Both the position numbers and the translations under genes were made by a program. Source: Clostridia bacterium (lineage in GTDB: Bacteria > Bacillota > Clostridia > UBA1381). Taken from it: a DNA stretch of 64,000 bases. Every line of letters starts with the position of its first letter. Positions within the stretch are counted from its first letter, which is position 1. Below, in pieces: positions 7,243 to 29,648 of the stretch. Location of the stretch: the NCBI GenBank assembly GCA_045538755.1, contig JAZQEC010000002.1, forward strand, positions 117,740-181,739. The letters are read 5' to 3'. The notes beneath the pieces were generated by a model, which had not been told where the DNA came from, searched no databases, and was given only the letters and a program-made list of their open reading frames with translations.

Positions 7243-7293
7243 TGGTGCGGATGACAGGACTTGAACCTGCACATCGTAGACACTAGATCCTAA
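7243..7293 (-). pseudogene. Orphan 3' half of a tRNA-Leu gene (CCA end to anticodon loop), left junction of the island
   Basis: 51 nt aligned to the first 51 nt of the intact tRNA at 29401-29451 with 8 differences. The match stops after gatcctAA. Acceptor 3' strand is CATCCGC. Confidence 0.8.
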
Positions 7294-7347
7294 TGCTTGA
7301 TACACCTCGGTGAAGAAATAAAATTCTTCATCGGAGGTGTATTTTTT

Positions 7348-8133
7348 ATGAAAATATATACTGAAAACTTTACTATTTTACTGAACAAACACATCACTAA
7401 TAAAGAAATTGATACATACGAGTTTCGAGTGATGTGCTACCTCTTAATGCTGTCAGATGATGAGGGTACTTGTTATCCGTCATATAAAACGATTGCAGAT
7501 AGAATTGGCATAAGCGAAACGAAAGCTAAGGATTCAATAAAGAAACTTATTGACCTTGGACTCATCAAGAAAGAGAAAAGAAAGAAGGCTGATGGCAGCG
7601 CAAGTTCTAATCTCTATGTGGTGTGTGAGAAAACTACCGTTAAGGTTGATGAGGTCGCAGAAGATACTACATCTTGTGTGCAAGACGACCTACCCGCTAG
7701 TGTACAAGAAGAACAAGGTTGTGTGTCAGACGGTTGCAATAAATACTCAAATATAAATAATAATTATTTTATTAATAACCATCTATCATCAATAGAGGAT
7801 GTGATGGACCAAGCGGAAACATATGAACTCGAAGGGTTATCAAAAAAGAATTATGAATCAGCACTTGAAATTATGTTTAATTCAGAGTCAATTTCAGTTG
7901 GCGGTGAAATCATTCCTCGTGAAATTGTTCGTAAGCGATTAGAAAATATCAGTTACGAGCATATCGTCTATGTCGATAATAACATGCCGAGAAAATTGAT
8001 TGACGGCAGAGTTGAAATTCAAGTCAGAAGTCCTATTCCCTATATCATAACTGCTCTATATAATTCATTGCGTTATACGAAAGATGAAATTGCAAGAATG
8101 GAATACGGAGATATGTATTTGAATTCGGAGTGA
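7348..8133 (+). CDS. Winged-helix DNA-binding protein (replication/initiator-like)
   Basis: YPSYKTIADRIGISETKAKDSIKKLIDLGLIKKEKR wHTH-like segment. GGAGG RBS 10 nt before the ATG at 7348, so the upstream part of the ORF is probably not translated. Confidence 0.45.
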   Translation: MKIYTENFTILLNKHITNKEIDTYEFRVMCYLLMLSDDEGTCYPSYKTIADRIGISETKAKDSIKKLIDLGLIKKEKRKKADGSASSNLYVVCEKTTVKVDEVAEDTTSCVQDDLPASVQEEQGCVSDGCNKYSNINNNYFINNHLSSIEDVMDQAETYELEGLSKKNYESALEIMFNSESISVGGEIIPREIVRKRLENISYEHIVYVDNNMPRKLIDGRVEIQVRSPIPYIITALYNSLRYTKDEIARMEYGDMYLNSE

Positions 8134-8534
8134 TACATCCGCAATCATAATCGCATAGATTGAGTTTGATTTTTGTGGTAAGGTAGTTACACCACCCTGA
8201 AAAGTTAATCTCTCGAACCGAAAAGATAAGCCCTATGTTAAGCCCTTAAAATCGATTTGAAAGAACAAACGAAGGTGCGAGAAATCACCTGACGGGGCGC
8301 CCCGAAACGGCGAGGTGTGGTGTTTTAAAAGAAGCAGGATAAAGCTTGGTGCGCTATTCGCCCCAAGCAGGCTTACATCGCCGTGCAAAGCCCGGCGGAG
8401 AGGTTCCCAAAGTGCATCTGCTGGTGATGGTTTGGTGCTGTAATGCGGATTTTCCGCACGGTTGAGCCTTGAAATTGGTGCATATACAGGTATTAATGGT
8501 ATTTAACGATATTTTGAGAAAGGTGAGTGTTATA

Positions 8535-9656
8535 ATGAGTAAAGTTGTATTTAAATCGCCGTATGTTTCCAGCGGCAAAGCTGTCGGCGGAGGTTATATA
8601 AACTATATGGCAAAGCGCGAGAGAGTTGACAAGAGCGTCAACACGAAAAAGGTTGAAATTAATCTGAATTATATTGCAACCAGACCTCGTGTTGAAAAGG
8701 TCGGAGAGCATGGCCTCTTCGGTAGTAAGGACGATATTAATCTGAACAAAGCAAGGAGTGAAATACTAAATCATCACGGAACTGTGTGGCTGTCTATCGT
8801 ATCTTTGAGACGAGAAGATGCAGACAGACTCAGGTTTAACAACGCAGATGCATGGAGAAATTTGATTCGGTCAAAGCAGTTTGAAATCGCAGAAGCGTAT
8901 AATATTCCGGTAAAGGATTTGGTTTGGTACGGAGCATATCACGATGAAGGTCACCACCCTCATATACATATGATTGTGTATAACAAGAACCCTGGAAGCG
9001 AATATCTCTCACGAAAAAGTTGTAATGACCTACGAGTAATGTTTACAAAAACTATTTTCAAAGACGAACTCAAACAACTCTACGATGAAAAACAAACGCT
9101 CCGAGATAAAATTATTGATGAAGTCAAGGAGAAAGTCAGTGGGTTTAAAGTTGACATTGGCGGAGCAAATGATGAATTTGCCCACGCCTTCAATGAGCTA
9201 AAATTTGTTCTCGATGGATACTCCGGCAAGAGGAATTATAAGTTCATTTCACATGAGCAAAAGGAAAAGGTCGATGCAGTTGTAAAAGTTGTCTGCAAGG
9301 ATGATAACCTGCAAGAGTTATATCGTCAGTGGTGTCTGCTGCAGCTTGCAAATCAAAGATACTATCGCAAGCATCCTGAAAAAAGTTTTGATGTCCTTGA
9401 GAAGAACAAAAACTTCGAAAAACGGTTGCAAAATGCTGTGCTTAAATCTGCATTAAAAGATAACCGACAAGGAAATATTTATACAAATAAAATTGATGCA
9501 TCCCCTATCTTCGGTGACATCATTTTCAGTCTCTGTAAAATGTTTGAGCAGTCAATACAGAAAGACATTGAGGAAGGCTTCACGAAATCAATTGTCGACT
9601 CCAAGGAAAGAGCAAAAGAATACAGACGTGATCATGGCATGGGAATGCATATGTAA
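8535..9656 (+). CDS. Mobilization relaxase (MobL/MOBP-like)
   Basis: Histidine-triad-like motif YHDEGHHPHIHMIVY. N-terminal YINYMAKRERV and YIATRPRVEK segments. AAAGGTGAG RBS before the ATG at 8535. Confidence 0.6.
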   Translation: MSKVVFKSPYVSSGKAVGGGYINYMAKRERVDKSVNTKKVEINLNYIATRPRVEKVGEHGLFGSKDDINLNKARSEILNHHGTVWLSIVSLRREDADRLRFNNADAWRNLIRSKQFEIAEAYNIPVKDLVWYGAYHDEGHHPHIHMIVYNKNPGSEYLSRKSCNDLRVMFTKTIFKDELKQLYDEKQTLRDKIIDEVKEKVSGFKVDIGGANDEFAHAFNELKFVLDGYSGKRNYKFISHEQKEKVDAVVKVVCKDDNLQELYRQWCLLQLANQRYYRKHPEKSFDVLEKNKNFEKRLQNAVLKSALKDNRQGNIYTNKIDASPIFGDIIFSLCKMFEQSIQKDIEEGFTKSIVDSKERAKEYRRDHGMGMHM

Positions 9657-9683
9657 ATCTATAAAAGGAAGGTGAATTTTATT

Positions 9684-10040
9684 ATGAAAAGAGAAAAGAT
9701 GACATTCAATGTGCCGCCTGCGGTACGAACTGAAATCAAAAATTATGTTAAACTACTGGGCTTCAAAAGCGAGAGTGATCTCTGCAACAAGGCTATCAAT
9801 GAGTACCTTACCAAGCTGCATTATGAAGCAAACAGTGACAACATAAATAAGATTTTGGTTCAGGCGGTGGACTGTACTATAGAGCATCATGTGGACAGAG
9901 TGTCGGACATGTTCTTCAAACTTGCTGTCAGCATCGAGAAACAAAATCTCATTGCCAGCGGTGAGTATGATGATTACTATGAAAGTTATATTGAAGAGGT
10001 CGCAATCGAAAATGTGCAGAAAAGACATGGAAGGTTGTAA
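9684..10040 (+). CDS. Small accessory protein, possible ribbon-helix-helix
   Basis: MTFNVPPAVRTEIKNYVKLLGFKSESDLCNKAINEYL resembles a beta-strand plus two helices of CopG/RHH proteins; lies directly after the relaxase. Confidence 0.35.
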   Translation: MKREKMTFNVPPAVRTEIKNYVKLLGFKSESDLCNKAINEYLTKLHYEANSDNINKILVQAVDCTIEHHVDRVSDMFFKLAVSIEKQNLIASGEYDDYYESYIEEVAIENVQKRHGRL

Positions 10041-10128
10041 AATCAGGTTGCACATATTTTATGTAAATAATTGAATTTTGTCGCAATATGTGTTAAAATG
10101 TAATCAAGAAGTTATCGGAGGTTTTATT

Positions 10129-11024: not shown

Positions 11025-12572
11025 ATGAGTGCAAATATAACTTTGGGGAAATCAAATTCCACTGTAATTAAAGGGTTTTTAAAAAAGGATGATGCAGAAT
11101 ACCCATTTTTATATACTAATGGAAAATTGGATGTATTTCCTCCTGACTCAAAATCGAAGACATCATTACAATCAGGTTTTTTTGAAGAAATTAATAAACC
11201 TTTCCAAAAGGGAAAAGTTATTCCTCAACTATTTATTGAAGGAGTTACATCTACAGGCCAGAAAATTATATTTGAAACATCAGAACATCATTCTAATAAT
11301 AATGGTTTTTTAACTTATAATATTGATTCAATATACTGCTATGATAAAACCAGTACAAAATACAAACCCAATAATACAGATGATAAAACAAGTATTTCAA
11401 AGCCTGAAGATATAAAATCAGATGCAGATAAAATTGTAAAAAGAATACATAATTGGGATATAGTAACTAATGAAATTGATGGAATGGTTATTTCGGGAGA
11501 ATCTATAGATTTATTTTTCAATCCAGGTTATGCTTTTCAACTTAATAACACATGGAATGAAAATGGTTCATTGGGAGCGTTGTCTATATCTGCTTTACCA
11601 CCTACTGAATATGATTGTGGCTCAATAGAATATGACGGAATAACACTTAATGTAAAGGTAAAAGCTGTTGCTACACAACATACATTTTCTGCGGAACCTT
11701 TTTCTAGTAAAAGTAGTATGATAATAAATTTTTCAAAACCAGTAAGTATTGCAATGGTAAAAGAAGTTAGATTGTCCATAGAACATGTATTGTCATTTCT
11801 CCAAAAAAGACAAAATATCGAATTAAATGAGACGGAGATCTTTTGCACAAATTGTGGATACAAAAGAATTTTCGGATCATTTGTTATTCAAAAAAATGCA
11901 ACTATCCAAGAAATTGATAATAAAAAGAAAAAAAGATTGATTGATTATACCATTATCAAAGATTGTTTTTCCAATCTAGTCTTATTGAGTTTGCAAAACA
12001 AATTGTATTACGAAAACATCCCGAAATGTACTGCTGACTGGAATGTTTACGGACCAGATAGAATCATTTTTAATTTTGCCGCTTTTGATCGTATTAGCGA
12101 ATTATATTATTCTGAGACGATGCGTTCTCAGGATTTTTATGATGTGAGATCTTTATTCTTTGAAATATCAAAAGAACTTCAAATAAAATTTGGAGGCAAA
12201 AAGAAAAAAGCAGCTAAAGAGATAGGAAAACGGATATTGGGATTGGAGAGTAGTTTACAAGATAGATTTGTTAAAATAATTAAAGAACACATTGGTTGTA
12301 TAGATGTGTTTATGGAACTAAACTATGGTAAAACATGGCGTACAAAAATACCATCGATTGGCTCCAGATTGAATACTATTCGCAATGATATTGCACATGG
12401 TCATATGGATTTGCATTACGATGATAATACGATATTAGATTTTGAAACTCTAGAGATATTATTATATGCAATTTGGTTAAGAAAGGCTGATCTTTGCGAT
12501 TATAACATAAAAATTGCAATTGAACAATTGTTTCATTTAGGGGTGCTTATAGAAGACAAAAACAACGAATAA
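11025..12572 (+). CDS. HEPN-motif protein, ApeA-like single-protein defence candidate
   Basis: C-terminal R-x4-H motif in SRLNTIRNDIAHGH. Large N-terminal domain of unknown function. Starts 17 nt after the Bro-N gene. Confidence 0.5.
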   Translation: MSANITLGKSNSTVIKGFLKKDDAEYPFLYTNGKLDVFPPDSKSKTSLQSGFFEEINKPFQKGKVIPQLFIEGVTSTGQKIIFETSEHHSNNNGFLTYNIDSIYCYDKTSTKYKPNNTDDKTSISKPEDIKSDADKIVKRIHNWDIVTNEIDGMVISGESIDLFFNPGYAFQLNNTWNENGSLGALSISALPPTEYDCGSIEYDGITLNVKVKAVATQHTFSAEPFSSKSSMIINFSKPVSIAMVKEVRLSIEHVLSFLQKRQNIELNETEIFCTNCGYKRIFGSFVIQKNATIQEIDNKKKKRLIDYTIIKDCFSNLVLLSLQNKLYYENIPKCTADWNVYGPDRIIFNFAAFDRISELYYSETMRSQDFYDVRSLFFEISKELQIKFGGKKKKAAKEIGKRILGLESSLQDRFVKIIKEHIGCIDVFMELNYGKTWRTKIPSIGSRLNTIRNDIAHGHMDLHYDDNTILDFETLEILLYAIWLRKADLCDYNIKIAIEQLFHLGVLIEDKNNE

Positions 12573-12701
12573 CTTATTACATTTAAAAGTCTGGATTAGT
12601 AGTTTTTAAACAAGAATAAGCCTATGTTTTAAAGCATGGGCTTTTTCTGTACACAAAATTTGGTCTTCATAAACCAAAGAAAAGAATTTTGAAAACCTTC
12701 G

Positions 12702-12730
12702 TGGACTTCCGCTCTCTTCTGTGGTATGCT
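12702..12730 (+). promoter_or_regulatory. Promoter-like element, copy A (TGGACT-17-TGgTATGCT)
   Basis: Part of a 36-nt block (12696-12731) that is 30/36 identical to 26345-26380. Followed by an RBS, a 17-codon ORF (12755-12808) and a hairpin. Confidence 0.35.
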
Positions 12731-12902
12731 TTGTCTCGCAGGAGGTGAAAAAATATGACAAGGCATACAAATGACTTAAGGCGATTGTTAATTCCTTTTA
12801 TGAATTAGCAATCGCCTTTTGAAATTAATACACTGAAACATTGACAACTCTTATATATTTTATCATTGGTGGTAAAATAAAATAAAAAGGAGTTGTTGAA
12901 AC

Positions 12903-13748
12903 ATGAATGAAATTACTAAACGCACTATTGAAGACTACAAGAATTATTTAATCGAGGAAGAAAAAAGTTCCGTCACCATAGAAAAATATATTCGTGACAT
13001 AAATGCATTCGTGCAGTGGTCGGACGGCAGAGCAATGACAAAGATACTTGTGCTTGAATACAAAAACATATTAGTACAGCAATATGCTCCTGCAAGTGTG
13101 AATTCGGTTTTATCTTCTCTCAACGGATACTTTAATTACATTGAAAGATACGATCTGAGGGTCAAGAACTTAAAAGTGCAAAGACAAATCTTCTGTCAGA
13201 GTGAAAAGGAACTGACCAAAGCAGAATACGAAAGACTTCTCAAAGCTGCAAAGAATAAAAAGAATGAGCGCCTCTACCTCATTATGCAAACGATATGTGC
13301 CACAGGAATCCGTGTGAGTGAACTGAAATACATCGATGTAAATTCTGTTATGACAGGTCAGGCTCAGGTTAGGTTGAAAGGCAAAATTCGAATAATAATA
13401 CTTCCAAAGGAACTGTGCCAACTACTGAAAAAATATATAAAGGAAAGGCATATCACATCAGGCAGTGTATTCGTAACGAGAAAAGGTCAACCTGTGGACA
13501 GGCACTCAATATGGAAATCGATGAAACAGTTGTGCGAGACCGCCGGAGTGTCAAAAGAAAAAGTGTTCCCACATAACCTCCGCCACCTGTTCGCACGAAC
13601 CTACTATTCGCTACAAAAAGATATCGTTCGCCTGGCGGATATACTTGGTCACTCAAGCGTAAATACTACCAGAATCTATACCATAGAAAATGGTTCTACC
13701 CACCGCAGGCAAATGCAAAGAATGGGACTTGTACGGATGCAAAATTAA
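12903..13748 (+). CDS. Tyrosine site-specific recombinase (XerC/XerD-like)
   Basis: ATGIRVSEL (Arg), HNLRHLFARTY (H-x-x-R) and LGHSSVNTTRIYT (His and Tyr) catalytic motifs; N-terminal SAM-like domain. Confidence 0.85.
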   Translation: MNEITKRTIEDYKNYLIEEEKSSVTIEKYIRDINAFVQWSDGRAMTKILVLEYKNILVQQYAPASVNSVLSSLNGYFNYIERYDLRVKNLKVQRQIFCQSEKELTKAEYERLLKAAKNKKNERLYLIMQTICATGIRVSELKYIDVNSVMTGQAQVRLKGKIRIIILPKELCQLLKKYIKERHITSGSVFVTRKGQPVDRHSIWKSMKQLCETAGVSKEKVFPHNLRHLFARTYYSLQKDIVRLADILGHSSVNTTRIYTIENGSTHRRQMQRMGLVRMQN

Positions 13749-17608: not shown

Positions 17609-18214
17609 ATGGGAAAATTAAATGTAATTATTGTTGACGCAACAGGAAACAAGGAGCAAAAGGTTGGATTACCTGATGATGTAAAAATCGGTATCATTAT
17701 GGTTAAGCTTGTTGAAAAAATCAAATTGCCTTCAACAGGTCCTGATGGTAATCCTATCAGCTATAAATTCATACATAAAGTTTCCGGAAGACAGCTTTTG
17801 GAAACACAGACTTTAGCAGATGCTCATATCAAAGATGGAGATGTATTAAGGCTTCAACCCGAAATTACTGCAGGCGCAGTTTGCACAAAGTGCGGTAAAA
17901 CTATGCAAGATGGAGTTGCTTTTTGCACAGATTGCGGACAGCCGATGAATATTGTACAGCAACCAAATTTTGTTCAACCCAATTATGGAGTATATCAGGT
18001 TAACACAATCAACAAATCTACCCCTGTTAAGGTGTTGGGAATTATTTCGTCGGTAATACATTTTTTGGCGACATTTATATTTTTAATGGTAGCTTTCGAT
18101 TGTTATGATTTTGAATATGCAGCACCATATCTTATGTTTGCGTTTTTCTTTTGTGCCCAGGGGTTTTTAACTTTAGCAATGACTATTTATATGTCAAACA
18201 GAATTAAAAAGTAA
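17609..18214 (+). CDS. Ubiquitin-like beta-grasp domain fused to a zinc ribbon and two TM helices (tethered Ubl precursor)
   Basis: Residues 1-89 have a beta-grasp-like pattern ending GDVLRLQPEITAG (compare ubiquitin LVLRLRGG). Then CTKCG-x9-FCTDCG and two hydrophobic helices. Confidence 0.6.
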   Translation: MGKLNVIIVDATGNKEQKVGLPDDVKIGIIMVKLVEKIKLPSTGPDGNPISYKFIHKVSGRQLLETQTLADAHIKDGDVLRLQPEITAGAVCTKCGKTMQDGVAFCTDCGQPMNIVQQPNFVQPNYGVYQVNTINKSTPVKVLGIISSVIHFLATFIFLMVAFDCYDFEYAAPYLMFAFFFCAQGFLTLAMTIYMSNRIKK

Positions 18215-18224
18215 GGTGAATATT

Positions 18225-19412
18225 ATGTCGACGGAATTAGAATTAAATAAAGAGGATTTTGAAGAAACCAGATATTCACGATTAGAACTTATTCCCTGGT
18301 GGAATCAAGAACTTCTACACAATTCAACAGTAATGGTTGTAGGTGCCGGTGCCATCGGCAATGAACTTATCAAAAACCTTGCCTTGCTTGGTGTGGGCAA
18401 AATCGTTATTGTTGATATGGATAAGATTGAGCAAACAAACCTTACTCGTTCTATTCTTTATAGAATGAAAGATGTTGGCAAATATAAATCCCAGGCCGCA
18501 GCAGAAGCTGCTATGGAGATTAATCCTGATGTTAAAGCAATATGCCTCAATCAGAATATTGTTACAGATATTGGTCTTGGTGTATTTCGCAGTATGGATA
18601 TTGTTCTCGGTGGTCTTGATAACCGTGAAGCAAGACTTGCAATTAACCAGTCATGTTATAAGGTAAACAAGCCCTGGATTGATGGTGCTATTGAGGTTTT
18701 AAACGGTTTTGCTAGAGTGTTTGTTCCGCCCGGTCCGTGTTATGAATGCACAATGACCGAAACAGACTGGAAACTCATCAATAAACGTAAATCCTGTGCA
18801 CTTTTAACGCATGATGAGATGTTAGAAGGCAAAACGCCTACTACACCTACTTCATCATCAATTATTGCAGGTGTTCAGGTTCAAGAAATGCTGAAGATTT
18901 TGCACAATGACAGAAATCTTCCTACGCTTGCCGGCAAAGGGTATGTGTTCAATGGACTTACCCATGATTCTTTTGTCGTAGAGTACCAGCTTAAAGATGA
19001 TTGTATGAGCCATGATTTGTATGACAATATAAGGGAAATGGATTGGTCTGCTCGTGAAGTGTCTGTAAAAGATGTTTTAAATCAGGCAGCAAAAGACCTT
19101 GGTGATGGTGCAATCATTGAATTTGATCGTGATATTGCTACAACTGCAACCTGTGTTTGTGGAGATACAAAAGACATTTTCAATACTGTGAACCGTCTTC
19201 GTGGCAAAGATATTGTTTGCGAAAAATGTGGTAAATCTATGCAATTTGAAACTATACACACAATTAATGGTGAAGAAGATTTTCTTGATAAAAAATTATA
19301 TGAAATCGGTATACCTTTGTATCATATCATTGCAGTGAGGAAAGGTATGAAATATGTTTATTATGAATTATCAAAAGATAAAAACGAAGTGTTAGGAGGT
19401 CTGTTTGAATGA
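18225..19412 (+). CDS. E1-like adenylating enzyme (ThiF/MoeB/UBA family)
   Basis: VMVVGAGAIGNE Gly-loop, DxD at IVDMDKIEQTNLTRS, GGLDNREAR, and two Cys pairs (CYEC, and CVCG...CEKCG). Its stop overlaps the E2 start (ATGA). Confidence 0.8.
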   Translation: MSTELELNKEDFEETRYSRLELIPWWNQELLHNSTVMVVGAGAIGNELIKNLALLGVGKIVIVDMDKIEQTNLTRSILYRMKDVGKYKSQAAAEAAMEINPDVKAICLNQNIVTDIGLGVFRSMDIVLGGLDNREARLAINQSCYKVNKPWIDGAIEVLNGFARVFVPPGPCYECTMTETDWKLINKRKSCALLTHDEMLEGKTPTTPTSSSIIAGVQVQEMLKILHNDRNLPTLAGKGYVFNGLTHDSFVVEYQLKDDCMSHDLYDNIREMDWSAREVSVKDVLNQAAKDLGDGAIIEFDRDIATTATCVCGDTKDIFNTVNRLRGKDIVCEKCGKSMQFETIHTINGEEDFLDKKLYEIGIPLYHIIAVRKGMKYVYYELSKDKNEVLGGLFE

Positions 19413-21334
19413 ATGCAAGAATGAGGAGAATTGCCTCCGACTATGAACAGATTAAGAAGAATTTTTCGAATCATAAGAATATTGTAGTAGAACCAATTGG
19501 TGAAGAACCTGCCGAAAAGTACAGAGTTACATATTATGTAAATGGTATATACCTTTTAGAAGACGGCAGGATCGAAACTCTTGGTAAACACATCGTAATT
19601 ATTACATTACATGCTGAATATCCGAGATATAAGCCGATATGTACTATTGCTACACCTATCTGGCATCCTAATTTTAGAGATGGACAGATTTGTATAGGTG
19701 ATATCTGGGGAGCTGGAGAATCACTCTGCGATATTATTGTAAACATCGGTGATATGATTCAATATAAATCCTGGAACTCCTTTAGTCCTCTTTCTGCTGA
19801 TGCTGCCGAGTGGGCTATTGCAAACAAACACCTATTCCCTGTTGGTAATGTTAATTTGTGGACCGGCGAGGAAGAAGACGGCACAGTAAAAAAAGAGTTT
19901 GATATTGATCTTTTTGATGAAGATGAAGAAACATCATCAACTGAAACTATTCCGGAAGTGGTAGAATCCGCTCCTGTACAGGAAGAAATGCCGGTTGTTT
20001 CAGCAGAAACAACTGTTGAACAAGTTCCTGTAGCTACTGCTATATTGGAAAATGAAGATGAGAATGACTTTGAAATTACTGCTGAAGAATTAGAAGGAAT
20101 TGAATTTGTTCCGACTGCAGTAAGAATGCAAGGCAGCCAATATGGAGCAACTGCAAAAGGTGGCAAAGTTAACTTTAAAACTGTATTAGTCAAAGGCTTA
20201 TTATGGGCTTTAATAGGCGCATTTATTGGCTTTGGTGTTTCAGAAGTTTCTGATGGTTTAACTGGTAATGCCTCCGTTGCAAGAATGTTAGGACATCCTG
20301 AAATTGCTGAATATTATGAATATACAGAGCAAGCAAATGATGTTTTAGCCCCTGTAGATGCAGCATTTGAAAAATACTGCAAAGAACAAGGAATAGATCC
20401 TGAATCAGAAAACGCTTTAACAAATTGGTTGACGAACAATACTTCTAAGTATTCAAGTACTGTCGAAAAATATTTGGAATACAATGAAAAAGCCGAAAAT
20501 GCATTGTATGAAGCCTATGAAAATGATTTTAATTCTAACGAAGACAAACTTGGCGAAGCGATGGAAGGAATATCAAGAACTCATACTGCATTGTGGTCCG
20601 CATTAATCGCTTTATTCATCGGTCTTTTCCTTGGTCTTGGAGAAGGCATATACTATGGTTCAAAGGAAAATGCAATTAAATATGCTTTAATTGGTGCCGG
20701 TATATCAATAGTTGTTGGTGCTGTAAGCGGATATCTTGCACAGTGGATGTATGCTTCGATGTTGACCGATTATTCGTCTGACTTTACCAAAGCTCTCGTA
20801 AGAGGTTTGGGTTGGGCAATAATGGGTATTGGTATAGGCTTATCCGTAGGTCTTATCAAATCTGAACAAAAGAGAATAATTTTCTGTTCTCTCGGTGGTG
20901 TTATTGGTGCATTTATAGGAGGATTCCTATTTAACTATGTATGTGATATCATTCCAAATGACATTGTTGCACGCGGATTTGCAATAGTTATTATGGGCCT
21001 TTTGATCGGTGTTGGCGTAGGTGTACTTGAACAGTTTGCAAAAGCTGCTTGGCTCAAAGTTATAAGAGGTGAATTTGAAGGTAAAGAATATCTTGTATTT
21101 GAAGGTACAACAAGTATTGGTAATAGTGGAAAGAACACTATTGTATTGTTCAAAGATAAACTTGTTGCACCAAATCATTGCGATATTGTTCAAGAAGGTA
21201 GCAAATATGTCCTGGTAGATAAAGGCTCACCAATGGGTACTGTTGTTAATGGTATGCGTGTGACTCGCCATGTTTTAAAACAGGGTGATGCAGTTGCTAT
21301 CGGTAACTCTGTACTAGTATTTAACACGAAATAA
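19409..21334 (+). CDS. UBC-type E2 fused to about six Gly-rich TM helices and a C-terminal FHA domain
   Basis: YPRYKPICTIATPIWHPNFRDGQICIGDIW (H86-P87-N88, Cys95). Hydrophobic GxxxG-rich segments between about residues 258 and 545. C-terminal IGNSGKNTIVL...VVNGMRV...GDAVAIGNSVLVF is FHA-like. Confidence 0.75.
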   Translation: MNARMRRIASDYEQIKKNFSNHKNIVVEPIGEEPAEKYRVTYYVNGIYLLEDGRIETLGKHIVIITLHAEYPRYKPICTIATPIWHPNFRDGQICIGDIWGAGESLCDIIVNIGDMIQYKSWNSFSPLSADAAEWAIANKHLFPVGNVNLWTGEEEDGTVKKEFDIDLFDEDEETSSTETIPEVVESAPVQEEMPVVSAETTVEQVPVATAILENEDENDFEITAEELEGIEFVPTAVRMQGSQYGATAKGGKVNFKTVLVKGLLWALIGAFIGFGVSEVSDGLTGNASVARMLGHPEIAEYYEYTEQANDVLAPVDAAFEKYCKEQGIDPESENALTNWLTNNTSKYSSTVEKYLEYNEKAENALYEAYENDFNSNEDKLGEAMEGISRTHTALWSALIALFIGLFLGLGEGIYYGSKENAIKYALIGAGISIVVGAVSGYLAQWMYASMLTDYSSDFTKALVRGLGWAIMGIGIGLSVGLIKSEQKRIIFCSLGGVIGAFIGGFLFNYVCDIIPNDIVARGFAIVIMGLLIGVGVGVLEQFAKAAWLKVIRGEFEGKEYLVFEGTTSIGNSGKNTIVLFKDKLVAPNHCDIVQEGSKYVLVDKGSPMGTVVNGMRVTRHVLKQGDAVAIGNSVLVFNTK

Positions 21335-21345
21335 TATAGAAGGAG

Positions 21346-22200
21346 ATGAGTGGTATGAAATATAGAATTATCAGCATAGCGATTGTGTTCATACTGCTTA
21401 TCTCTTTTTCTGCATATGCAATTAACTTTACACCTGAAGAGACATATAATTCGGTGGTTGTTGTATATACAGATACAGGGGTTGGCAGTGGTTTTTCTAT
21501 TAAAGAAAATATAATAATAACAAACGCACATGTTGTGGGATACAGTAAAAAAGTTGCAGTTAATTTATACGATGGAACGACAATTAAAGGCAACGTTATA
21601 AAAACTGATATTGAAAAAGATTTGGCGTTGATTGAGGTTGATAAAACAATTACACCATTAAGTATAAATTCAAACAATTTAAGTATAGGTCAGGAAGTAT
21701 ATGCAATAGGCGCACCAAAAGATATGCCTTACACCATGACCAAAGGAATCATATCAGCACTTGACAGAAAACTTGGACAAAACACCTACATACAAATAGA
21801 TGCATCTGTAAATTCCGGAAACAGTGGCGGTCCGCTTGTTGATGACAATGGAAATGTGATTGGAATCATTACTCTAAAAGCATCTGATGCGGAAGGAATT
21901 GGCTTTGCAATTAACACAAAAGATATCAATAATTTTATTGAAGGTGTAGAAGTCCCTGAGCAACAAGTTTCTTCTGAAACCGAAAATGGAGAAAAAGATA
22001 TATTGCCAAACGAAAATAATGCTGAAACAAATGAAATGCAAAAGACTCTTATGGCAGAAAACGATGGATTAAAAATAGCACTGTGTATGTCTGTTATTTT
22101 TAATATTATATTAGGATTGTTATACCTTCACATATTGTTTAAAAAACGTTCCAAGAAAGAAAAAGACGAGTTTGATTTTGAAATTGAAATTGAGGAGTAG
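21346..22200 (+). CDS. Trypsin-like (S1/HtrA-type) serine protease, exported, with C-terminal TM anchor
   Basis: Signal-like MKYRIISIAIVFILLISFSAYA. Triad motifs TNAHVV, DLALIEV and GNSGGPLV. C-terminal helix LKIALCMSVIFNIILGLLYLHILF. The start may be the ATG at 21355. Confidence 0.8.
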   Translation: MSGMKYRIISIAIVFILLISFSAYAINFTPEETYNSVVVVYTDTGVGSGFSIKENIIITNAHVVGYSKKVAVNLYDGTTIKGNVIKTDIEKDLALIEVDKTITPLSINSNNLSIGQEVYAIGAPKDMPYTMTKGIISALDRKLGQNTYIQIDASVNSGNSGGPLVDDNGNVIGIITLKASDAEGIGFAINTKDINNFIEGVEVPEQQVSSETENGEKDILPNENNAETNEMQKTLMAENDGLKIALCMSVIFNIILGLLYLHILFKKRSKKEKDEFDFEIEIEE

Positions 22201-22205
22201 CGATT

Positions 22206-23177
22206 ATGAAGAAGAAAAAAACTAAGGCAAGGGTTTCTCATAAAAATATTACACCCGATTTGCCACAAAATATAGTTCCTGTAGGAGAAAGAGTTTTTGA
22301 TGATAAAAACATTTATATTCATCAAAAAGTTTATGCACAAATACATAAATTTGCTGCCAATAAAACAGAAAATGAGCATGGTGGAATCTTGGTTGGCAGA
22401 ATTCTAAATGAAATGGGTAAAGAAAATACAATTATAGAAGGCTTTATTGAAGCGAAATACAATGCAGCTACGCCTACTACTTTAACATTCACCCACGAAA
22501 CATGGGATTATTTCCATTCTGAAATGGATAGAAAGTATAAGGATAAAAAAATTGTGGGATGGATTCATACTCATCCTAATTTTGGAATATTCTTGTCTGA
22601 AAATGACCGATTTATACAACAAAATTTCTTCACTGATGCTAATCAGGTAGCCTATGTAGTCGATCCAATTCAAAATGATGAAGGCTTCTTCTTTTGGGTG
22701 AATGAAAAATTAGAACGTTGCCCTGGTTTTTACTTGTTTGATAAAAACGGAGTTAAAATAAAACAAAAGGCATGGTCAACTGATCCGGATGAACTTAATG
22801 AAGATGTAATTGTAAAACATAGTAAGATACATCCTATTCTTACAATTGCACTTGTTCTTGTTATACTTGTAAATCTTTTTGTGATAATGCAACAATCTAG
22901 GAGAATAGACACGCTTGAAAGGCAGGTTGAGGATCAGGAATTGGTACTTCGGTATGGTGTTCTTGGCATTTATGGTAATCCTGAAATATCGGATGTTGCT
23001 GATAATATAAGACAGCAAATAGAAGCACAGGAAAAATCTAAAAAACAAGCGATTCAGGATGCTATGAAACAACAAAAAGAACAACAAGCGACAGAGGCGA
23101 ACGAACAAGAACAAAAAGAAGAAAAAAATACTGAAGAAAATGAAACAAACACAGAGAATAACGGAGGTACAGAATAA
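22206..23177 (+). CDS. JAB/MPN (JAMM) metallopeptidase with TM helix and E/Q/K-rich tail
   Basis: ENEHGGILVG (Glu) and HTHPNFGIFLSEND (H-x-H-x7-S-x2-D); TM helix IHPILTIALVLVILVNLFVIM. Confidence 0.8.
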   Translation: MKKKKTKARVSHKNITPDLPQNIVPVGERVFDDKNIYIHQKVYAQIHKFAANKTENEHGGILVGRILNEMGKENTIIEGFIEAKYNAATPTTLTFTHETWDYFHSEMDRKYKDKKIVGWIHTHPNFGIFLSENDRFIQQNFFTDANQVAYVVDPIQNDEGFFFWVNEKLERCPGFYLFDKNGVKIKQKAWSTDPDELNEDVIVKHSKIHPILTIALVLVILVNLFVIMQQSRRIDTLERQVEDQELVLRYGVLGIYGNPEISDVADNIRQQIEAQEKSKKQAIQDAMKQQKEQQATEANEQEQKEEKNTEENETNTENNGGTE

Positions 23178-24022
23178 TGGATTTTATAGGTAAAATTTGT
23201 CCCTATTGCAAAACTGAATTTAAAGAAGGCGATGATGTCGTTGTATGTAGCGTTTGCGAAATGCCACATCACAAAGAATGTTGGATAGAAAATAAAGCAT
23301 GTACTACATTTGGATGCACAGGCACAATTGTTGGTGCAGAGCAATATGCAGAAGCTGTAGATAATAAGACATTCTGTTCTAAATGTGGAGCGCCTTTAAG
23401 TGAAGGGCAAAAATTCTGTGCTTCATGCGGAACACCAGCAGGAGCAACAGGTGAACCACATTTTCAGGTTGCTGGAGCATATGCGGCAAACCAAAGTTAT
23501 CAGCAAAATACATATACTGCGCCTCAGCCACAGTACACACCTCAATATTCTGCTCCGCAGTATAATGCTGGTTATAATCCTTATGGTCAACAACAGGTCG
23601 ATCAGGATTTATATACATTTATACAGTCTAATCAGCCATTCTATATATCAAAGTTCCAAAAAATGCAGATGAGTAACAGTAAAACATCATGGAATTGGTG
23701 TAGCTTTTTATTCAGTGCATATTGGTTGGCATATAGAAAAATGTATGGTATAGCAGCGGCATATGCCGGAATCTCCTTCGTATTAGGGTTGATTCCTGGT
23801 CTTGGTTCTATTTTAGGATTAGCAATGTCTATCTGTGCTGGTATATTTGGAAATCATTTTTATAAACAATATATAGACGGAGAATTACAGGTAGCTAAGA
23901 GTATGGATGCGATGAATAAAACCGCCTATATAGCCAAGAAAGGTGGAACAAGCGCAGGTGCAGTTTGGGTTGTTATAGGAATAATGACTGTTCTTGGAAT
24001 GATAATAGGCAGTAGCATGTAA
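23177..24022 (+). CDS. Prok-RING-like C4HC3 finger + zinc ribbon + Q/Y/P-rich linker + DUF2628-like TM domain (E3 candidate)
   Basis: C8-x2-C11-x12-C24-x2-C27-x4-H32-x2-C35-x6-C42-x4-C47 in ICPYCKTEFKEGDDVVVCSVCEMPHHKECWIENKACTTFGC. Then FCSKCG-x9-FCASCG, and WNWCSFLFSAYWLAYRKMY. Confidence 0.6.
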   Translation: MDFIGKICPYCKTEFKEGDDVVVCSVCEMPHHKECWIENKACTTFGCTGTIVGAEQYAEAVDNKTFCSKCGAPLSEGQKFCASCGTPAGATGEPHFQVAGAYAANQSYQQNTYTAPQPQYTPQYSAPQYNAGYNPYGQQQVDQDLYTFIQSNQPFYISKFQKMQMSNSKTSWNWCSFLFSAYWLAYRKMYGIAAAYAGISFVLGLIPGLGSILGLAMSICAGIFGNHFYKQYIDGELQVAKSMDAMNKTAYIAKKGGTSAGAVWVVIGIMTVLGMIIGSSM

Positions 24023-24033
24023 GGAGGCTTATT

Positions 24034-24996
24034 ATGGATGATACAAATATTGAAATTTTAGAAACCGAAAGTGTTGTTATCGAAAGTTCAGTAGTTGCAT
24101 TACCTATGAATTTTGTGTCTGTAGGAACTGTGGAACACGATAGTGTTCAGGTTTATATCAAACAAGATGTTTATAAACGAATAGAGAAATTCGCTAAAGA
24201 AGAAATGTCAAAAGAAGTTGGAAGTATTTTAATTGGCGACTATGTGGATGAAAAAGACAGAAAAACTATAATAATTTCAAATTACATTGAAGCAAAATAT
24301 ACCGATGCTTCTGCCTCTACTCTTACCTTTACACATGAAACATGGGATTATGTATATAGAGAAAAGGATAAAAAATATCCGGACAAAAAAATAGTTGGCT
24401 GGCAACACACTCACCCGGGATATGGAATTTTCCTATCAAATTATGATATTTTCATACAGGAAAATTTCTTTAACCTTCCTTGGCAGATTGCATATGTTGT
24501 AGATCCTATTGCAGATACAAGAGGATTTTTTGAGTGGAAAAATGATAAAGTTGCCAAAATGTCAGGCTTTTATGTTTATGATGAAATTGGCAGAGAAATA
24601 AAAATTTCAGAAAAAGCCAAGCCTGTTAAAAAACATTTTTCCATTACAACTATTATTTTGTCGTTCTTGCTACTTGTTTCGCTATTGGTTTCAGTTTCGT
24701 TTGGGATTGAGAAAAACAATGTTATGGATAGGCTCAACGAAGCACTTGCAACGATAAGCCAGCAATCCAACATTCAAATGGATGAAACACCAACGGTAGT
24801 AGAACAAGAACTGCCCGAAGATGTTGAAGCATTTAAGGTGTATGTAGTACAGGAAGGTGATTATCTAGAAAGTATATGCGAGCAATATGGTTTAGATTAC
24901 ATGAGCAATATACAGAAGATAATGAGAATCAATAGCATAACAGATGTAAATAAAATCTATGTAGGTCAAAAATTGTACTTGCCTATAAACGAATAA
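24034..24996 (+). CDS. JAB/MPN (JAMM) metallopeptidase with TM helix and C-terminal LysM
   Basis: SKEVGSILIG and HTHPGYGIFLSNYD JAMM motif. TM helix ITTIILSFLLLVSLLVSVSFGI. LysM: YVVQEGDYLESICEQYG...INSITDVNKIYVGQKLYLP. Confidence 0.8.
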   Translation: MDDTNIEILETESVVIESSVVALPMNFVSVGTVEHDSVQVYIKQDVYKRIEKFAKEEMSKEVGSILIGDYVDEKDRKTIIISNYIEAKYTDASASTLTFTHETWDYVYREKDKKYPDKKIVGWQHTHPGYGIFLSNYDIFIQENFFNLPWQIAYVVDPIADTRGFFEWKNDKVAKMSGFYVYDEIGREIKISEKAKPVKKHFSITTIILSFLLLVSLLVSVSFGIEKNNVMDRLNEALATISQQSNIQMDETPTVVEQELPEDVEAFKVYVVQEGDYLESICEQYGLDYMSNIQKIMRINSITDVNKIYVGQKLYLPINE

Positions 24997-25008
24997 AGAG
25001 GTGTTTTT

Positions 25009-26283
25009 ATGATAATATGCTCTCGTTGTAAAACAGAAAATGAAGACGATGTGAAATTTTGTAGAGAATGCGGAAACGATTTGATAACAAATGTTGATGC
25101 ACCGGCGAATGAGGATCTAAAAAGCTTGGCAGACTCATTAAATGAACAAGCAGTACATACAGAAAAACAACCATTTAATCTTAATAAAGCTATTTCTGAA
25201 GTGCCAAAAAAACTTTGGAGCGGAATAAAGAAATCTATATTTTTTAGAAAAAAGAAAAATACAATTATCACCTGTTCTTCTCTAGTAGTCATGATATTGT
25301 TGATAATTGGAGTTTTAAATAGCGGTTATATTGCGTTTACCATGGCATACAACATGGGTAAATACGATGCAGCAAAAAATATTCAAGGATGGTCGTTTAA
25401 TAGTAATGGTGTGAAATCTAATATAGAGAAATTTGTCATAAATAAAACTGAATCTTACTATGCTGATTTCTCTTCCGAGAAGATAACGTATGAGGAAGCT
25501 AATGAAAAGTTTGATATTGCGGAGGATTTCAGCAGCAACAAGGATGCAAAAAATAAGGCTGATAAATTACAAACTTCAAGAACATCTTATACAAAAGCAG
25601 AAGAATACGAGAAGAACGGCGATACCTTTAGTGCTGTATTGGAATATCTTAAAGTAATCGAAGAAGATAAAAACTATAATACAGCAAAAGAAAAAATAGA
25701 AAAGAATAAGCCAACTGTAAAACAACAAGCTATTTCACAAATGGATAACTGTGTTGCAGTAAATGATTTTAATACTGGTTTAAAAATTGTATCCGATATG
25801 GAAAAGATATTCTCTAACGATGCTGATATTAATAATTATAAAAAGGATTTTGAAGCACGTAAAGAAGCACATAGAATTCAGGAATTAAAAGATAATCAAA
25901 AAGTCAAAGTTACAAGCGTAAGATCATTTAACGATGGTTATTATATTGTTTTTAGAAAAGCCCAAGCAATATTGAAAAATTGCAGCAATAATGTTTTAAA
26001 AGAAGCAACAATTGTGTTCTTGTTGTTCGATAGTAACGGATATCCTGTAGATGCAGATTATTCGATGTACTCAGAAAGTGGAGTAGACAATAGTGAACGA
26101 TGTGGTACGGGAAGCATGAATCTACAACCTGGTGAATCTTGGGGGTACGGCAAGGCGATGGATATTCCGGATAATGCAACGCAAGTTAAAGCCTGTGTAA
26201 AATCTGCTGAATTTTATGATGGCGGTACATGGACGAATCCGTATTACGAACATTGGCTTAAAACTGAAAAAGACAGATATTAA
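25009..26283 (+). CDS. Zinc-ribbon / single-pass TM protein with large extracytoplasmic domain
   Basis: CSRCK-x9-FCRECG at the N-terminus, FFRKKKNT stop-transfer, TM helix SSLVVMILLIIGVLNSGYIAF, about 320-aa external region. Confidence 0.6.
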   Translation: MIICSRCKTENEDDVKFCRECGNDLITNVDAPANEDLKSLADSLNEQAVHTEKQPFNLNKAISEVPKKLWSGIKKSIFFRKKKNTIITCSSLVVMILLIIGVLNSGYIAFTMAYNMGKYDAAKNIQGWSFNSNGVKSNIEKFVINKTESYYADFSSEKITYEEANEKFDIAEDFSSNKDAKNKADKLQTSRTSYTKAEEYEKNGDTFSAVLEYLKVIEEDKNYNTAKEKIEKNKPTVKQQAISQMDNCVAVNDFNTGLKIVSDMEKIFSNDADINNYKKDFEARKEAHRIQELKDNQKVKVTSVRSFNDGYYIVFRKAQAILKNCSNNVLKEATIVFLLFDSNGYPVDADYSMYSESGVDNSERCGTGSMNLQPGESWGYGKAMDIPDNATQVKACVKSAEFYDGGTWTNPYYEHWLKTEKDRY

Positions 26284-27128: not shown

Positions 27129-27836
27129 TTAGATGGATTCAAGAAAGTTTTGGAACTTGTCTGGTGAAATTTCAGCTTTTTTATATTTCATACGATATTC
27201 CATAAGCATTTTGAGTTTAATGTGCAGTTCATTTTTTTGTTTTTCATCAGCACACTTCTTATGCTTGTAGTAGGTTGCCTGATATACTTTATCATATAAT
27301 AAAAGAAGATTGTCTGCTTGTTTGGTTTCTTTTGAGCGCTTCTTTGCTCCGTACTGCCTGCAGGCTTCGTTATCGCAATATTCCATAGTAGGATTATCCG
27401 CAAGGAAGAATTTTGAGCAACTTCCGCATTTTACGATAGGCATATTATTTGTCAGGGCATACATCATTTCCAAACGAAGAAAATCAAAAAAATCACTCAA
27501 ATAATACATATCAATGAATTGTATTGTTCCATCGTCATCGATGTTGCCTATGGTCTTAGTTACAGAGAATTTTGTTTTGCTTAATTTAAATTCCTCATCG
27601 CACAATAAATAACCCTCTATCCTTTTCTTCTTATCCTTGCTTGAAAAACAACGCTCAAGCATTTTAGTTGCTTCATCCTTTACTTTTTTCATATCAAGAT
27701 CTGGAAAGATTGTTTTTAGGTGTGTAGGAGCATCATTGGAAAGAACGCAAGCCGCTCCACCAATTGGTACAACATACGAGCCTTTTTCTGTAATGATTTT
27801 TTCTTCTCCATGACCAAATATAACTTCAAAATTCAT
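27129..27836 (-). CDS. Hypothetical protein with a Cys cluster (CGSC...CDNEAC)
   Basis: 235-aa ORF on the opposite strand with a hairpin terminator at 27084-27120; no enzymatic motif recognised. Confidence 0.5.
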   Translation of the reverse strand: MNFEVIFGHGEEKIITEKGSYVVPIGGAACVLSNDAPTHLKTIFPDLDMKKVKDEATKMLERCFSSKDKKKRIEGYLLCDEEFKLSKTKFSVTKTIGNIDDDGTIQFIDMYYLSDFFDFLRLEMMYALTNNMPIVKCGSCSKFFLADNPTMEYCDNEACRQYGAKKRSKETKQADNLLLLYDKVYQATYYKHKKCADEKQKNELHIKLKMLMEYRMKYKKAEISPDKFQNFLESI

Positions 27837-28173
27837 TTTTTATTCCTCACAATATTACAATATAGTTACAAAATCAAAAATACTTGACAAGATAATTTTA
27901 ATATGTTAGAATATCTTTACAAGATAATTGACGAACATATAATCCTGTAATTAGTATACCACAGAAAAGGATTGTTCGTCAAGAGTTTTGTGTATTTCTT
28001 TTGGAAGGAGAGGTTAAAATGTGGAATCAAAAATAAACAGTATTCAATTTTGCATTTACTTATTATCTTAAATTTAAATAGTTAACTTTCGAACCATCAT
28101 ATAGAAATCATCAGTAGGAGTATTTACAGAATTGATATATCAAAAGCCAAATCTATAAGAAAGGAGCAGCAGA

Positions 28174-28332
28174 ATGGCAAGAACAGAAAGGGAGTTGCCC
28201 ATAAACAATATATCTTATCAATTTGTGGGAACTGAAGAAGATTTGATTAAATTTTTGAAGGCAATTACCTTTGAGTATTTGACAGCAAATTATCCTGACA
28301 CAGAGGATGAAATGCACAAAGTAAGTGCATAA
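28174..28332 (+). CDS. Small hypothetical protein (52 aa)
   Basis: Hand-translated MARTERELPINNISYQFVGTEEDLIKFLKAITFEYLTANYPDTEDEMHKVSA. AAAGGAG RBS 6 nt upstream. TTGACA-17-TAGAAT promoter at 27884-27912. Confidence 0.4.
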   Translation: MARTERELPINNISYQFVGTEEDLIKFLKAITFEYLTANYPDTEDEMHKVSA

Positions 28333-28413
28333 CTTTGGTTAGGTATTGCGGCTGGATATATCAAAATGTTTGTGGTAATGTTGTCTTCAGAAAAAATCTG
28401 GAGGTGATATTAA

Positions 28414-29213
28414 GTGAGAGGATTTGCATATGGTCGTCTATCAAGAGACGAAGACAGCGAACAGGAATCCCTGAAAAATCAGGAAGATTTGGTCGTTGGA
28501 TTTATGAAGAAAGGGAACCATATAGTTATCGAAATAGGAATGGATGATAACTATACAGGAATGGATTTTGACAGACCGGGAATTAAGCGAATGTTTGAAC
28601 TGGCAAGAAACGGCGAGATTGATGCAGTATTCGTGAAAGACTTAACTGCACATCTCATAGAATTCGAGAGGAAATGCTTGACAAGATAGTACAAGCCGAG
28701 CTTGAAGGAATACGATTAGTATTCGATGACCTATGGGAGAATGTAGAGGCTGATGTCAAGAAATGGGCAGCAGGAAAATCTACAACAGAGAAAAGGCTCG
28801 AAAATCTTAAGCAAAGCATTTCGGATACAGAGCTTGAAATCCAGAAAATCCTTATGGAAAGGATTGAGGATAAACAGAATGCTGATATGTATGACAAGAT
28901 GATTGAGACAAGGCGAAATGACATTGAGAACTTTAAAAAGGAAGTTTATGAGATAGAAAACCTTGATAAAACAATCAAGGATAGAAAATCTACTCTCAAA
29001 CATTCCATAGAGTTACTCGATGATATCATAGCCGAAAACAACATCAGTAATGCAAACCTGCACCTGATGTTTGACAAAATCATCATTGAAGAAACGGGCG
29101 AAGGATTAAATCTTGACCTGAGATTAAAATCCCCGTTTATCAGCAAAGCAAAAGAGTCATTACTCAAGAAATATATGATAGTAGATAACCAAGTTTTACA
29201 GGAAGGAGCGTGA
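28414..29213 (+). pseudogene. Large serine recombinase remnant (internal deletion plus frame change)
   Basis: The N-terminal 77 aa look like a resolvase domain (FAYGRLSRDEDS nucleophile Ser; IDAVFVKDL), then read out of frame to a stop. ORF 28674-29213 in another frame is the coiled-coil C-terminal part. The recombinase and zinc-ribbon domains are missing. Confidence 0.65.
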
Positions 29214-29400
29214 GAATATGACAAGAAGAAATGATATGAAATCAATAATTATTGAGATGGCAGACAAGCTGTATCGTGAAGATACTAGCAGAAAAATCAA
29301 GCCGAGCAAAAAAGCGAACAAAAAATAATTGTTCGCATAGCGATACATAAACACCTGAAACAACAAAACACTTATAGGGAAATCCTATAAGTGTTTTGGG

Positions 29401-29485
29401 TGGTGCGGCTGAAGGGACTTGAACCCCCACGTCATTGACACTAGATCCTAAGTCTAGCGCGTCTGCCAATTCCGCCACAGCCGCA
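29401..29485 (-). tRNA. tRNA-Leu (anticodon UAG), CCA encoded, carried inside the island
   Basis: The reverse complement folds as a class II tRNA. Acceptor GCGGCTG/CAGCCGC, D arm GGCGGAATTGGCAGACGC, anticodon stem-loop CTAGA-CTTAGGA-TCTAG, long variable arm, T arm GGGGG-TTCAAGT-CCCTT, then ACCA. Confidence 0.9.
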
Positions 29486-29612
29486 TATTAAGTTTTACCT
29501 CTTAATTTTTACACGGTAGAGGTTACCCGAGGAGGAGCAAAAACGCTTAATCCTCATCTATGAAAACGGAAAAACCGTAATCAACAATTCTTTCACCGAG
29601 GTGGATGAAGCA

Positions 29613-29648
29613 AAGTCTAGCGCGTCTGCCAATTCCGCCACATCCGCA
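29613..29648 (-). pseudogene. Orphan 5' half of tRNA-Leu (acceptor, D arm, 5' anticodon stem), right junction of the island
   Basis: Differs at 1 of 36 positions from 29450-29485. Acceptor 5' strand GCGGATG pairs with CATCCGC of the left half at 7243-7293. Confidence 0.8.

Follow-up and report, generated by a model that had tools for sequence, protein, structure and literature searches.

Known systems and the element described here

Large serine recombinases insert mobile elements such as SPbeta (SprA, in spsM), A118 (in comK), Tn5397 (TndX), and Tn4451 (TnpX), as well as streptococcal integrative and conjugative elements and integrative and mobilizable elements (IMEs) found in rumA, traG, maff2, and snf2. 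For the streptococcal IMEs, serine integrases have been reported in protein-coding genes only (PMC5357655). The literature that we searched treats serine integrases as not targeting tRNA genes, the usual explanation being that a 2-bp crossover is unable to rebuild an interrupted tRNA gene. Here we describe an island (positions 7294-29612) in a 64-kb stretch of a Clostridia genome, referred to below as the window (GenBank assembly GCA_045538755.1, contig JAZQEC010000002.1, positions 117,740 to 181,739), which splits a chromosomal tRNA-Leu(UAG) gene within its anticodon loop. It is highly probable that the element was inserted there by a serine integrase, that it supplies a replacement tRNA expressed from the host promoter, that such elements insert serially, and that this copy later lost its integrase. 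The island is not a one-off case: it belongs to a large family whose targets include tRNA-Leu(CAG) as well and whose members are often stacked in tandem. Our full-text literature search returned no account of a serine integrase acting at a tRNA anticodon loop and supplying a replacement tRNA, although an earlier description may exist.

Split tRNA-Leu gene and its uninterrupted counterpart in sister genomes

The interrupted gene and its intact relative occupy the following positions.

7243..7293, minus strand: host tRNA-Leu(UAG) 3' part, covering position 33 through the CCA end; the shared dinucleotide is 7292-7293
29613..29647, minus strand: host tRNA-Leu(UAG) 5' part, positions 1-34; the shared dinucleotide is 29613-29614
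29401..29484, minus strand: intact cargo tRNA-Leu(UAG) (Rfam tRNA, 57 bits)

On the plus strand, positions 7243-7293 read TGGTGCGGATGACAGG...CTAGATCCTAA, the last letters of the host tRNA 3' part being ...GATCCTAA, and the 5' part starts AAGTCTAGCGCG at 29613, the plus strand from that position onward being AAGTCTAGCGCGTCTGCCAATTCCGCCACATCCGC. Joined through the shared AA, the halves give an 84-nt tRNA that ARAGORN calls as tRNA-Leu(UAG). In the joined tRNA both the acceptor stem (GCGGATG/CATCCGC) and the T stem (GCAGG/CCTGT) are self-consistent, and the cargo tRNA has different ones (acceptor stem GCGGCTG/CAGCCGC, T stem GGGGG/CCCTT); the two tRNAs are identical at 76 of 85 aligned positions. 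A preliminary description, made from the letters of the window, had recognized a tRNA-Leu 3' part at 7243-7293, had argued from compensatory bases that the halves belong to each other, and had proposed that they would be called as a tRNA once joined. These points are borne out, the 3' part lying on the minus strand. Its boundaries needed two corrections: the 5' part does begin at 29613 but ends at 29647, not one base further at 29648, and the intact copy, given as 85 nt at 29401-29485, is an 84-nt gene at 29401-29484 on the minus strand. This copy is the sole tRNA that ARAGORN reports in the 64-kb window.

The shared AA corresponds to TT at tRNA positions 33-34 (U33-U34), in the loop CUUAGGA. 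Nothing but AA is duplicated at the island junctions, and the bases around the crossover differ between attB (cct-AA-gtc) and attP (gca-AA-tgc), with no longer identity.

The uninterrupted site was found in two sister genomes, L006 (GCA_045580145.1) and L007, by a homology search with the neighboring EamA transporter; exact-sequence look-ups of the flanking EamA and ArgJ proteins, and of the 100%-identical P0027, returned no record. In both genomes EamA is 88-89% identical to that of the window and the arg-operon synteny is kept. L006 is collinear with window positions 38375-29746 at 81% identity (argF-argD-argB-argJ-argC, EamA, and DUF4250), and the next gene in L006 is an uninterrupted tRNA-Leu(UAG) of 84 nt that equals the joined window halves. 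Its 5' part matches window 29649-29613 and its 3' part matches 7293-7243, both at 100%, and the two matches overlap by exactly 2 nt, in line with the earlier claim that AA alone is duplicated. The same uninterrupted tRNA-Leu, again equal to the joined halves, stands at the syntenic locus of L007; window 7243-7293 is 100% identical to L006 11253-11303 and to L007 3767-3817. The window halves are therefore one host gene parted by 22.3 kb, and the empty site foreseen in the preliminary description exists in two genomes. Together, the empty site, the tRNA call on the joined halves, the 2-bp duplication, and the related elements described below support the proposed insertion of a serine-integrase element in the anticodon loop, which split the host gene.

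attP-derived arms

Each host half is followed, toward the island interior, by an arm that would derive from attP.

7294..7312, plus strand: left attP-derived arm TGCTTGATACACCTCGGTG (reverse complement CACCGAGGTGTATCAAGCA); an identical arm follows the tRNA 3' half in L015
29594..29612, plus strand: right attP-derived arm CACCGAGGTGGATGAAGCA; the same arm occurs in L009, L010, L014, L016, L070, and L080
7297..7334, plus strand: promoter-like site TTGATA-16-TAAAAT (consensus matches only) and hairpin, overlapping the left arm just upstream of the first island gene

The island-end arms form an inverted repeat around AA with matches at 17 of 19 positions, which confirms the palindromic attP reconstructed earlier; the predicted attP is imperfectly symmetric about the crossover. 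A degenerate pattern of the arms occurs at only two places in 64 kb, namely the two arms, with 0.01 chance matches expected. Motifs resembling CACCGAGGTG stand at equal offset on the left and right arms, and the motif CACC(G/T)(A/C)GGTG is found at the same distance from the crossover in the left arms of other relatives. From one subfamily to another, the left and right arms change together, as is expected of a palindromic attP.

The first island gene has its ribosome-binding site under the hairpin at 7297-7334. Since the promoter-like site lies inside the left arm and the hairpin over the ribosome-binding site, one may speculate that integrase binding at this arm could influence expression of the first gene.

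Serine integrase remnant and intact relatives

28414..29213, plus strand: large serine integrase pseudogene, with the deletion junction at 28642-28644
28174..28332, plus strand: 52-aa open reading frame (ORF) directly upstream of the integrase, conserved and also present in L003, L004, and L015

The ORF at 28414-28689 matches the Resolvase domain (PF00239, 8.6e-9) and has the serine-recombinase motif YGRLSRDE at its start, and the coiled-coil C-terminus is encoded in another frame at 28674-29213. The first ~77 residues of the integrase are joined out of frame to this C-terminal coiled coil. Compared with the sibling element L009, which is 96-99% identical over ~3.2 kb and encodes an intact integrase of 540 aa (L009 2146-3765), the window lacks 820 bp (L009 2377-3196), i.e., ~273 codons, and is frameshifted. 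The missing middle part is supplied by a 98%-identical relative (P0001) with Recombinase and Zn-ribbon domains, and two further relatives (P0015 and P0017) have Resolvase and Recombinase domains. All three domains were detected in the intact 540-aa integrase of L015 (10001-11623; PF00239, 1.2e-23; Recombinase PF07508, 1.5e-26; Zn_ribbon_recom PF13408, 1.4e-12), whose best matches among solved structures are 3g13 (a putative conjugative-transposon recombinase), the SPbeta integrase, and TnpX. The preliminary description had assigned the insertion to a serine integrase; such a gene is indeed present, adjoining the cargo tRNA at the end of the island, but it is not intact, having suffered the 820-bp deletion and the frameshift. 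The 52-aa ORF upstream has no Pfam match and may, speculatively, be a candidate recombination directionality factor.

Cargo tRNA and its leader

29364..29398, minus strand: terminator-like hairpin directly after the cargo tRNA
29485..29593, minus strand: conserved leader, promoterless, that separates the cargo tRNA from the right arm
29676..29704, minus strand: host tRNA promoter TTGACA-17-TATAAT (12/12 consensus matches, extended TG)
L006 11150-11219 and L007 3637-3733: leader before the native tRNA-Leu

The cargo tRNA lies 128 bp inside the right junction in the same orientation as the host gene, and its anticodon stem-loop is identical to that of the host. A consensus scan revealed no promoter-like sites between the host half and the cargo tRNA; the only one upstream of the cargo tRNA is that of the host tRNA, to which the promoter in front of the native tRNA of L006 and L007 is homologous. 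Being intact and having the anticodon UAG of the split gene, the cargo tRNA has the properties ascribed to it earlier, from which we infer that it compensates for the loss of that gene.

The leader of ~100 nt shares homology with that of the native tRNA-Leu, over its full length in L007 and over the 3' 70 nt in L006, and the window's own host half keeps only a short homologous stub. Rfam models detected nothing besides the tRNA in the leader and junction region. An alignment fold of 15 leaders predicts three hairpins, with hardly any covariation given how similar the copies are. The nested series of leader homology suggests that the leader is ancestral in the host genus, where the element would have acquired a promoterless module of leader plus tRNA. 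Alternatively, the "native" tRNA-Leu genes of L006 and L007 may be fixed ex-cargo copies.

Two further loci (L017 1316-1399 and L018 1484-1567) have a tRNA-Leu right after the integrase, with a host-type promoter directly upstream and with neither an arm nor an orphan half. This arrangement suggests that the cargo tRNA and the host 5' half underwent homologous recombination, an event that would have erased attR.

Family of related elements

With a composite full-length integrase as the query, a scan covering a single genome for each species returned 75 integrase loci, almost all in metagenome-assembled genomes of Clostridia (Congzhengia, Oscillospiraceae, Acutalibacteraceae, Ruminococcus, and others). 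IMG/VR yielded no relatives of the integrase and gave no sign of a phage-borne family. The downstream sequence was long enough to look for a tRNA in 63 of the 75 loci, and 49 of these 63 have a convergent tRNA after the integrase, which is tRNA-Leu (UAG or CAG) except for one tRNA-Pro. The loci are distributed as follows.

36 loci: intact convergent tRNA at most 500 bp downstream of the integrase (35 tRNA-Leu, one tRNA-Pro)
5 loci: cargo tRNA itself split (the left arm of the next element follows in L028, L033, and L046; L011 leaves the contig; L013 has another insert)
8 loci: tRNA-Leu 0.5-3 kb downstream of the integrase
14 loci: tRNA not found downstream of the integrase
12 loci: contig end less than 400 bp after the integrase

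In L013 (2151-2210) the cargo tRNA is cut 6 nt further in, after GTCTAG, and the insert of ~2.7 kb has other ends; it seems to be a different kind of element using the same tRNA.

UAG cargo tRNAs are associated with integrases more than 85% identical, and mostly CAG tRNAs with the clade at ~50% identity. After the cargo tRNA, 31 loci contain between one and three 5' halves of tRNA-Leu; an arm and AA (UAG) or GA (CAG) come before each half, and the cut is always at tRNA positions 33-34. Left junctions, consisting of a 3' half, the dinucleotide, and an arm, were identified in about a dozen loci. The search for attP-like sequences next to intact serine integrases, suggested in the preliminary description, thus recovered relatives that share the boundaries, the arm motif, and the cargo tRNA.

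The complete element of L015, with the left arm of the window, is only ~4.4 kb long and comprises genes for an HTH_36 protein, a DUF6076 protein, the 52-aa ORF, the intact integrase, and the cargo tRNA; the acceptor strands of its two host halves, GCGCCTG and CAGGCGC, match each other. Neither a tyrosine recombinase nor a relaxase is in the L015 ORF list, and because minimal relatives of this kind have no relaxase ORF, mobilizability is regarded as an add-on to the family core. Another complete element (L038, ~8 kb) belongs to the distant clade, has halves with complementary acceptor stems at both ends, and is likewise free of a tyrosine recombinase. Host flanks vary from locus to locus, which indicates that the elements move between genomes.

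Successive halves are stacked in seven loci (L001, L010, L012, L015, L016, L027, and L063). In the tandem stacks of two or three orphan 5' halves listed here, the acceptor stems differ.

L001 11264-11471
L010 7445-7640
L015 12060-12575
L016 1694-2051
L063 12872-13066

The stacks arose by serial insertion, each time into the cargo tRNA of the previous element. In decayed copies (this window, L001, L066, L077, and L081) the tRNA-proximal end is kept, and many relatives from metagenomes have deletion fusions (proteins P0003, P0007, P0010, and P0024; L001 6070-6987 and 10001-10837) in which only the 3' end of the integrase gene is left. One deletion fusion combines a relaxase N-terminus with the integrase Zn ribbon. 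The tRNA-proximal end of the element thus appears to be preferentially retained while the rest decays. It is slightly more probable than not that these loci represent a widespread and undescribed family of large-serine-integrase elements in gut and rumen Clostridia for which the anticodon loop of tRNA-Leu (UAG or CAG) would be attB, a promoterless tRNA copy would hijack the host promoter, and the target would be regenerated.

Proposed mechanism and alternative explanations

From the sequences compared here, the following course of events is proposed. A large serine recombinase would have put the element 7294-29612 into the chromosomal tRNA-Leu(UAG) gene by pairing the imperfectly palindromic attP, with its 19-bp arms containing CACCGAGGTG, with an attB that is the DNA of the anticodon stem-loop. 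Strand exchange would take place at the 2-bp overlap AA/TT, i.e., at tRNA positions 33-34. Since a 2-bp crossover is unable to rebuild the gene, the element carries a complete tRNA-Leu(UAG). Transcription probably proceeds from the host promoter through the orphaned 5' half, the arm, and the leader, and would stop at the cargo tRNA's own terminator. The cargo tRNA also regenerates a fresh attB, as serial insertion in the relatives shows, so that further elements insert one after another. The later 820-bp deletion inactivated the integrase and left the island fixed. The cell presumably depends on the cargo tRNA, and this dependence would explain why decayed copies keep the tRNA-proximal end.

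Because the island encodes a tyrosine recombinase, and because tRNA genes, anticodon-loop sites included, are known targets of tyrosine integrases (PMC4383910), a classical tRNA island was considered, in which the Xer-like enzyme encoded at 12903-13748 integrated the element and the intact tRNA is the regenerated target. Several observations make this very improbable: the intact tRNA, which lies 128 bp away from the junction, is a complete gene of its own with another acceptor stem; the enzyme is encoded more than 5 kb from either end, and the minimal L015 has no such ORF; and it is the serine integrase together with the tRNA module that is conserved in dozens of loci. A tyrosine recombinase needs an identical overlap of 6-8 bp and leaves a tRNA fragment as a direct repeat, whereas the island junctions share 2 bp only. 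The Xer-like protein was ruled out as the responsible integrase by these 2-bp junctions, its internal position, and its absence from the L015 ORF list. The similarity of the host and cargo tRNAs (76/85) also makes a paralogous origin conceivable, with the intact copy as the original gene and the halves as relics of a decayed paralogue parted by rearrangements, i.e., without any site-specific insertion. The probability of this reading is negligible, as it is refuted by the empty-site comparison, where syntenic sister genomes carry the joined sequence as one gene with matches overlapping by 2 nt, and as the architecture of half, arm, and tRNA recurs with different host flanks in many genomes.

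A further alternative accepts the insertion as proposed and differs in the role of the cargo tRNA, which would be an anti-defense tRNA acting against anticodon nucleases or a mere device for regenerating attB. The tandem arrays do show that the cargo tRNA acts as a new attB, and tRNAs of mobile elements that evade anticodon nucleases are documented for phages (PMC10264068). An escape from such nucleases is not obvious here because the anticodon stem-loops of cargo and host are identical. Compensation is favored in addition by the cargo anticodon, which is always that of the split gene (UAG with AA junctions, CAG with GA junctions), and by the tRNA-proximal end that decayed elements retain (this window, L001, L066, L077, and L081), so that we regard a role other than compensation as improbable.

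Some observations weigh against insertion of a serine-integrase element with a replacement tRNA, or at least complicate it. The window's own integrase is, to judge from its sequence, a dead deletion pseudogene, and the 820-bp deletion leaves this copy of the island stranded and no longer moving on its own. No match to the excised attP circle was found in the JGI metagenomes or in IMG/VR, a weak and uninformative test because the control search recovered only six attR junctions in the metagenome collection. The transcription of the cargo tRNA from the host promoter is deduced solely from a consensus scan. The leader at the "empty" sites of L006 and L007 is homologous to that of the element, and these sites may for this reason not be virgin. 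Finally, a second type of right arm, ATACAGGACGGAACCT-AA, has no CACCGAGGTG motif, and no left counterpart matching ATACAGGACGGAACCT was found when one was searched for. Its leader context is the same, the adjoining integrases are 91-96% identical in the parts available, and it occurs at these positions.

L001 11422-11437
L012 2733-2748
L013 5086-5101
L016 1678-1693
L052 1140-1155

Implications

If insertion with tRNA replacement is correct, serial stacking and dependence of the host on the element tRNA would let decayed elements persist, and the reliance of the cell on this tRNA may explain the survival of many copies with broken integrases. The arrays of tRNA 5' fragments in Clostridia genomes would be accounted for as well. 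The elements would also provide a route for the horizontal replacement of chromosomal tRNA genes, with a gradual turnover of tRNA-Leu genes by element-borne copies, which is hinted at because element-type leaders stand before "native" tRNA-Leu genes. Serine integrases are the main tools for programmable genome insertion. The extremely conserved attB, the anticodon arm of tRNA-Leu, is a possible landing site in gut Clostridia that are hard to engineer, and insertion there would be tolerated and stackable.

Other genes of the island and its neighborhood

7348..8133, plus strand: HTH_36/DnaD_N-like protein, putative replication initiator, the first core gene of the element family
8469..9656, plus strand: MobL/MobP3-family relaxase (PF18555, 3.6e-22; NF041499, 5.6e-70, above the curated cut-off)
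12903..13748, plus strand: Xer-like tyrosine recombinase in the island interior
17609..26283, plus strand: ubiquitin-like conjugation cargo cluster
27129..27836, minus strand: DUF6076 protein, a conserved core gene of the family, at the same position in L004 and L015

The homologue of the HTH_36 protein is also the first gene of the minimal L015 element. Conjugation-pore genes (VirB4, type IV secretion system) had no match among the 27 island ORFs scanned. With a relaxase, no oriT identified, and an inactive integrase, 7294-29612 is classified from its gene content as a predicted integrative and mobilizable element. Beside the Xer-like recombinase, in an interior stretch of low GC content (0.33), lies an ORF of 515 aa (11025-12572) with no Pfam, NCBIfam, or PADLOC match; the region 11025-13748 may be a separately acquired module.

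The cargo cluster begins with a YukD-like ubiquitin-like protein with a Zn ribbon, a ThiF-type E1, and an E2 fused to an FHA domain, and continues with a trypsin-like protease, a JAB peptidase, a prokaryotic RING protein, a second JAB peptidase with LysM, and a DUF5780 protein. Three Zn-ribbon proteins and an HTH/M78 pair are encoded upstream of it. PADLOC gave only weak E1-E2, JAB, and BilD matches in this cluster, and it was not assigned to a catalogued defense system.

To the left of the island, a prophage late region (window 1-7242) abuts the 3' end of the split tRNA.

8-1957: prophage tape-measure protein
1960-4854: prophage tail and baseplate genes
5968-6849: prophage endolysin with CHAP and PG_binding domains

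This prophage had no megablast match in a phage collection. The window lacks the DUF2344, radical SAM, and ScpA/B genes found after the tRNA in L006. Probably the prophage is located at, or adjacent to, the 3' end of the tRNA; the tRNA gene would then be a double hotspot.

Comparison with known systems

The integrase family shares with the enzymes of SPbeta, A118, Tn5397, and Tn4451 the Resolvase, Recombinase, and Zn-ribbon domains and the coiled coil. Further features common to SPbeta-type elements are the 2-bp crossover, the short and imperfectly palindromic attP, the integrase gene at the element end, and a disrupted target gene that would be restored only by excision. Unlike SPbeta-type elements, the island targets a tRNA gene, which is cut within the anticodon loop, and brings a whole replacement gene behind the promoter of the target, which is how the family would get around the inability of a 2-bp crossover to rebuild a tRNA gene. 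The replacement also regenerates attB, leading to tandem stacks.

Islander-type islands, integrated by tyrosine integrases into tRNA and tmRNA genes, resemble the island in having a tRNA target at an anticodon-loop ("A") site, a functional tRNA left after integration, and tandem arrays marked by tRNA fragments. The recombinase family is unrelated, and in Islander-type islands the tRNA fragment of attP rebuilds the gene and leaves a long direct repeat, whereas the island has only a 2-bp repeat, both halves orphaned, a separate whole gene supplied, and its tyrosine recombinase in an internal position. In gene content it is like Firmicutes IMEs, with a MobL/MobP3 relaxase, a putative replication protein, and an integrase but no pore gene among the ORFs scanned; unlike in those IMEs are the integration target and the tRNA-swap module. 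The enzyme and its chemistry are those of large serine integrases; the difference lies in the target and the compensation device.

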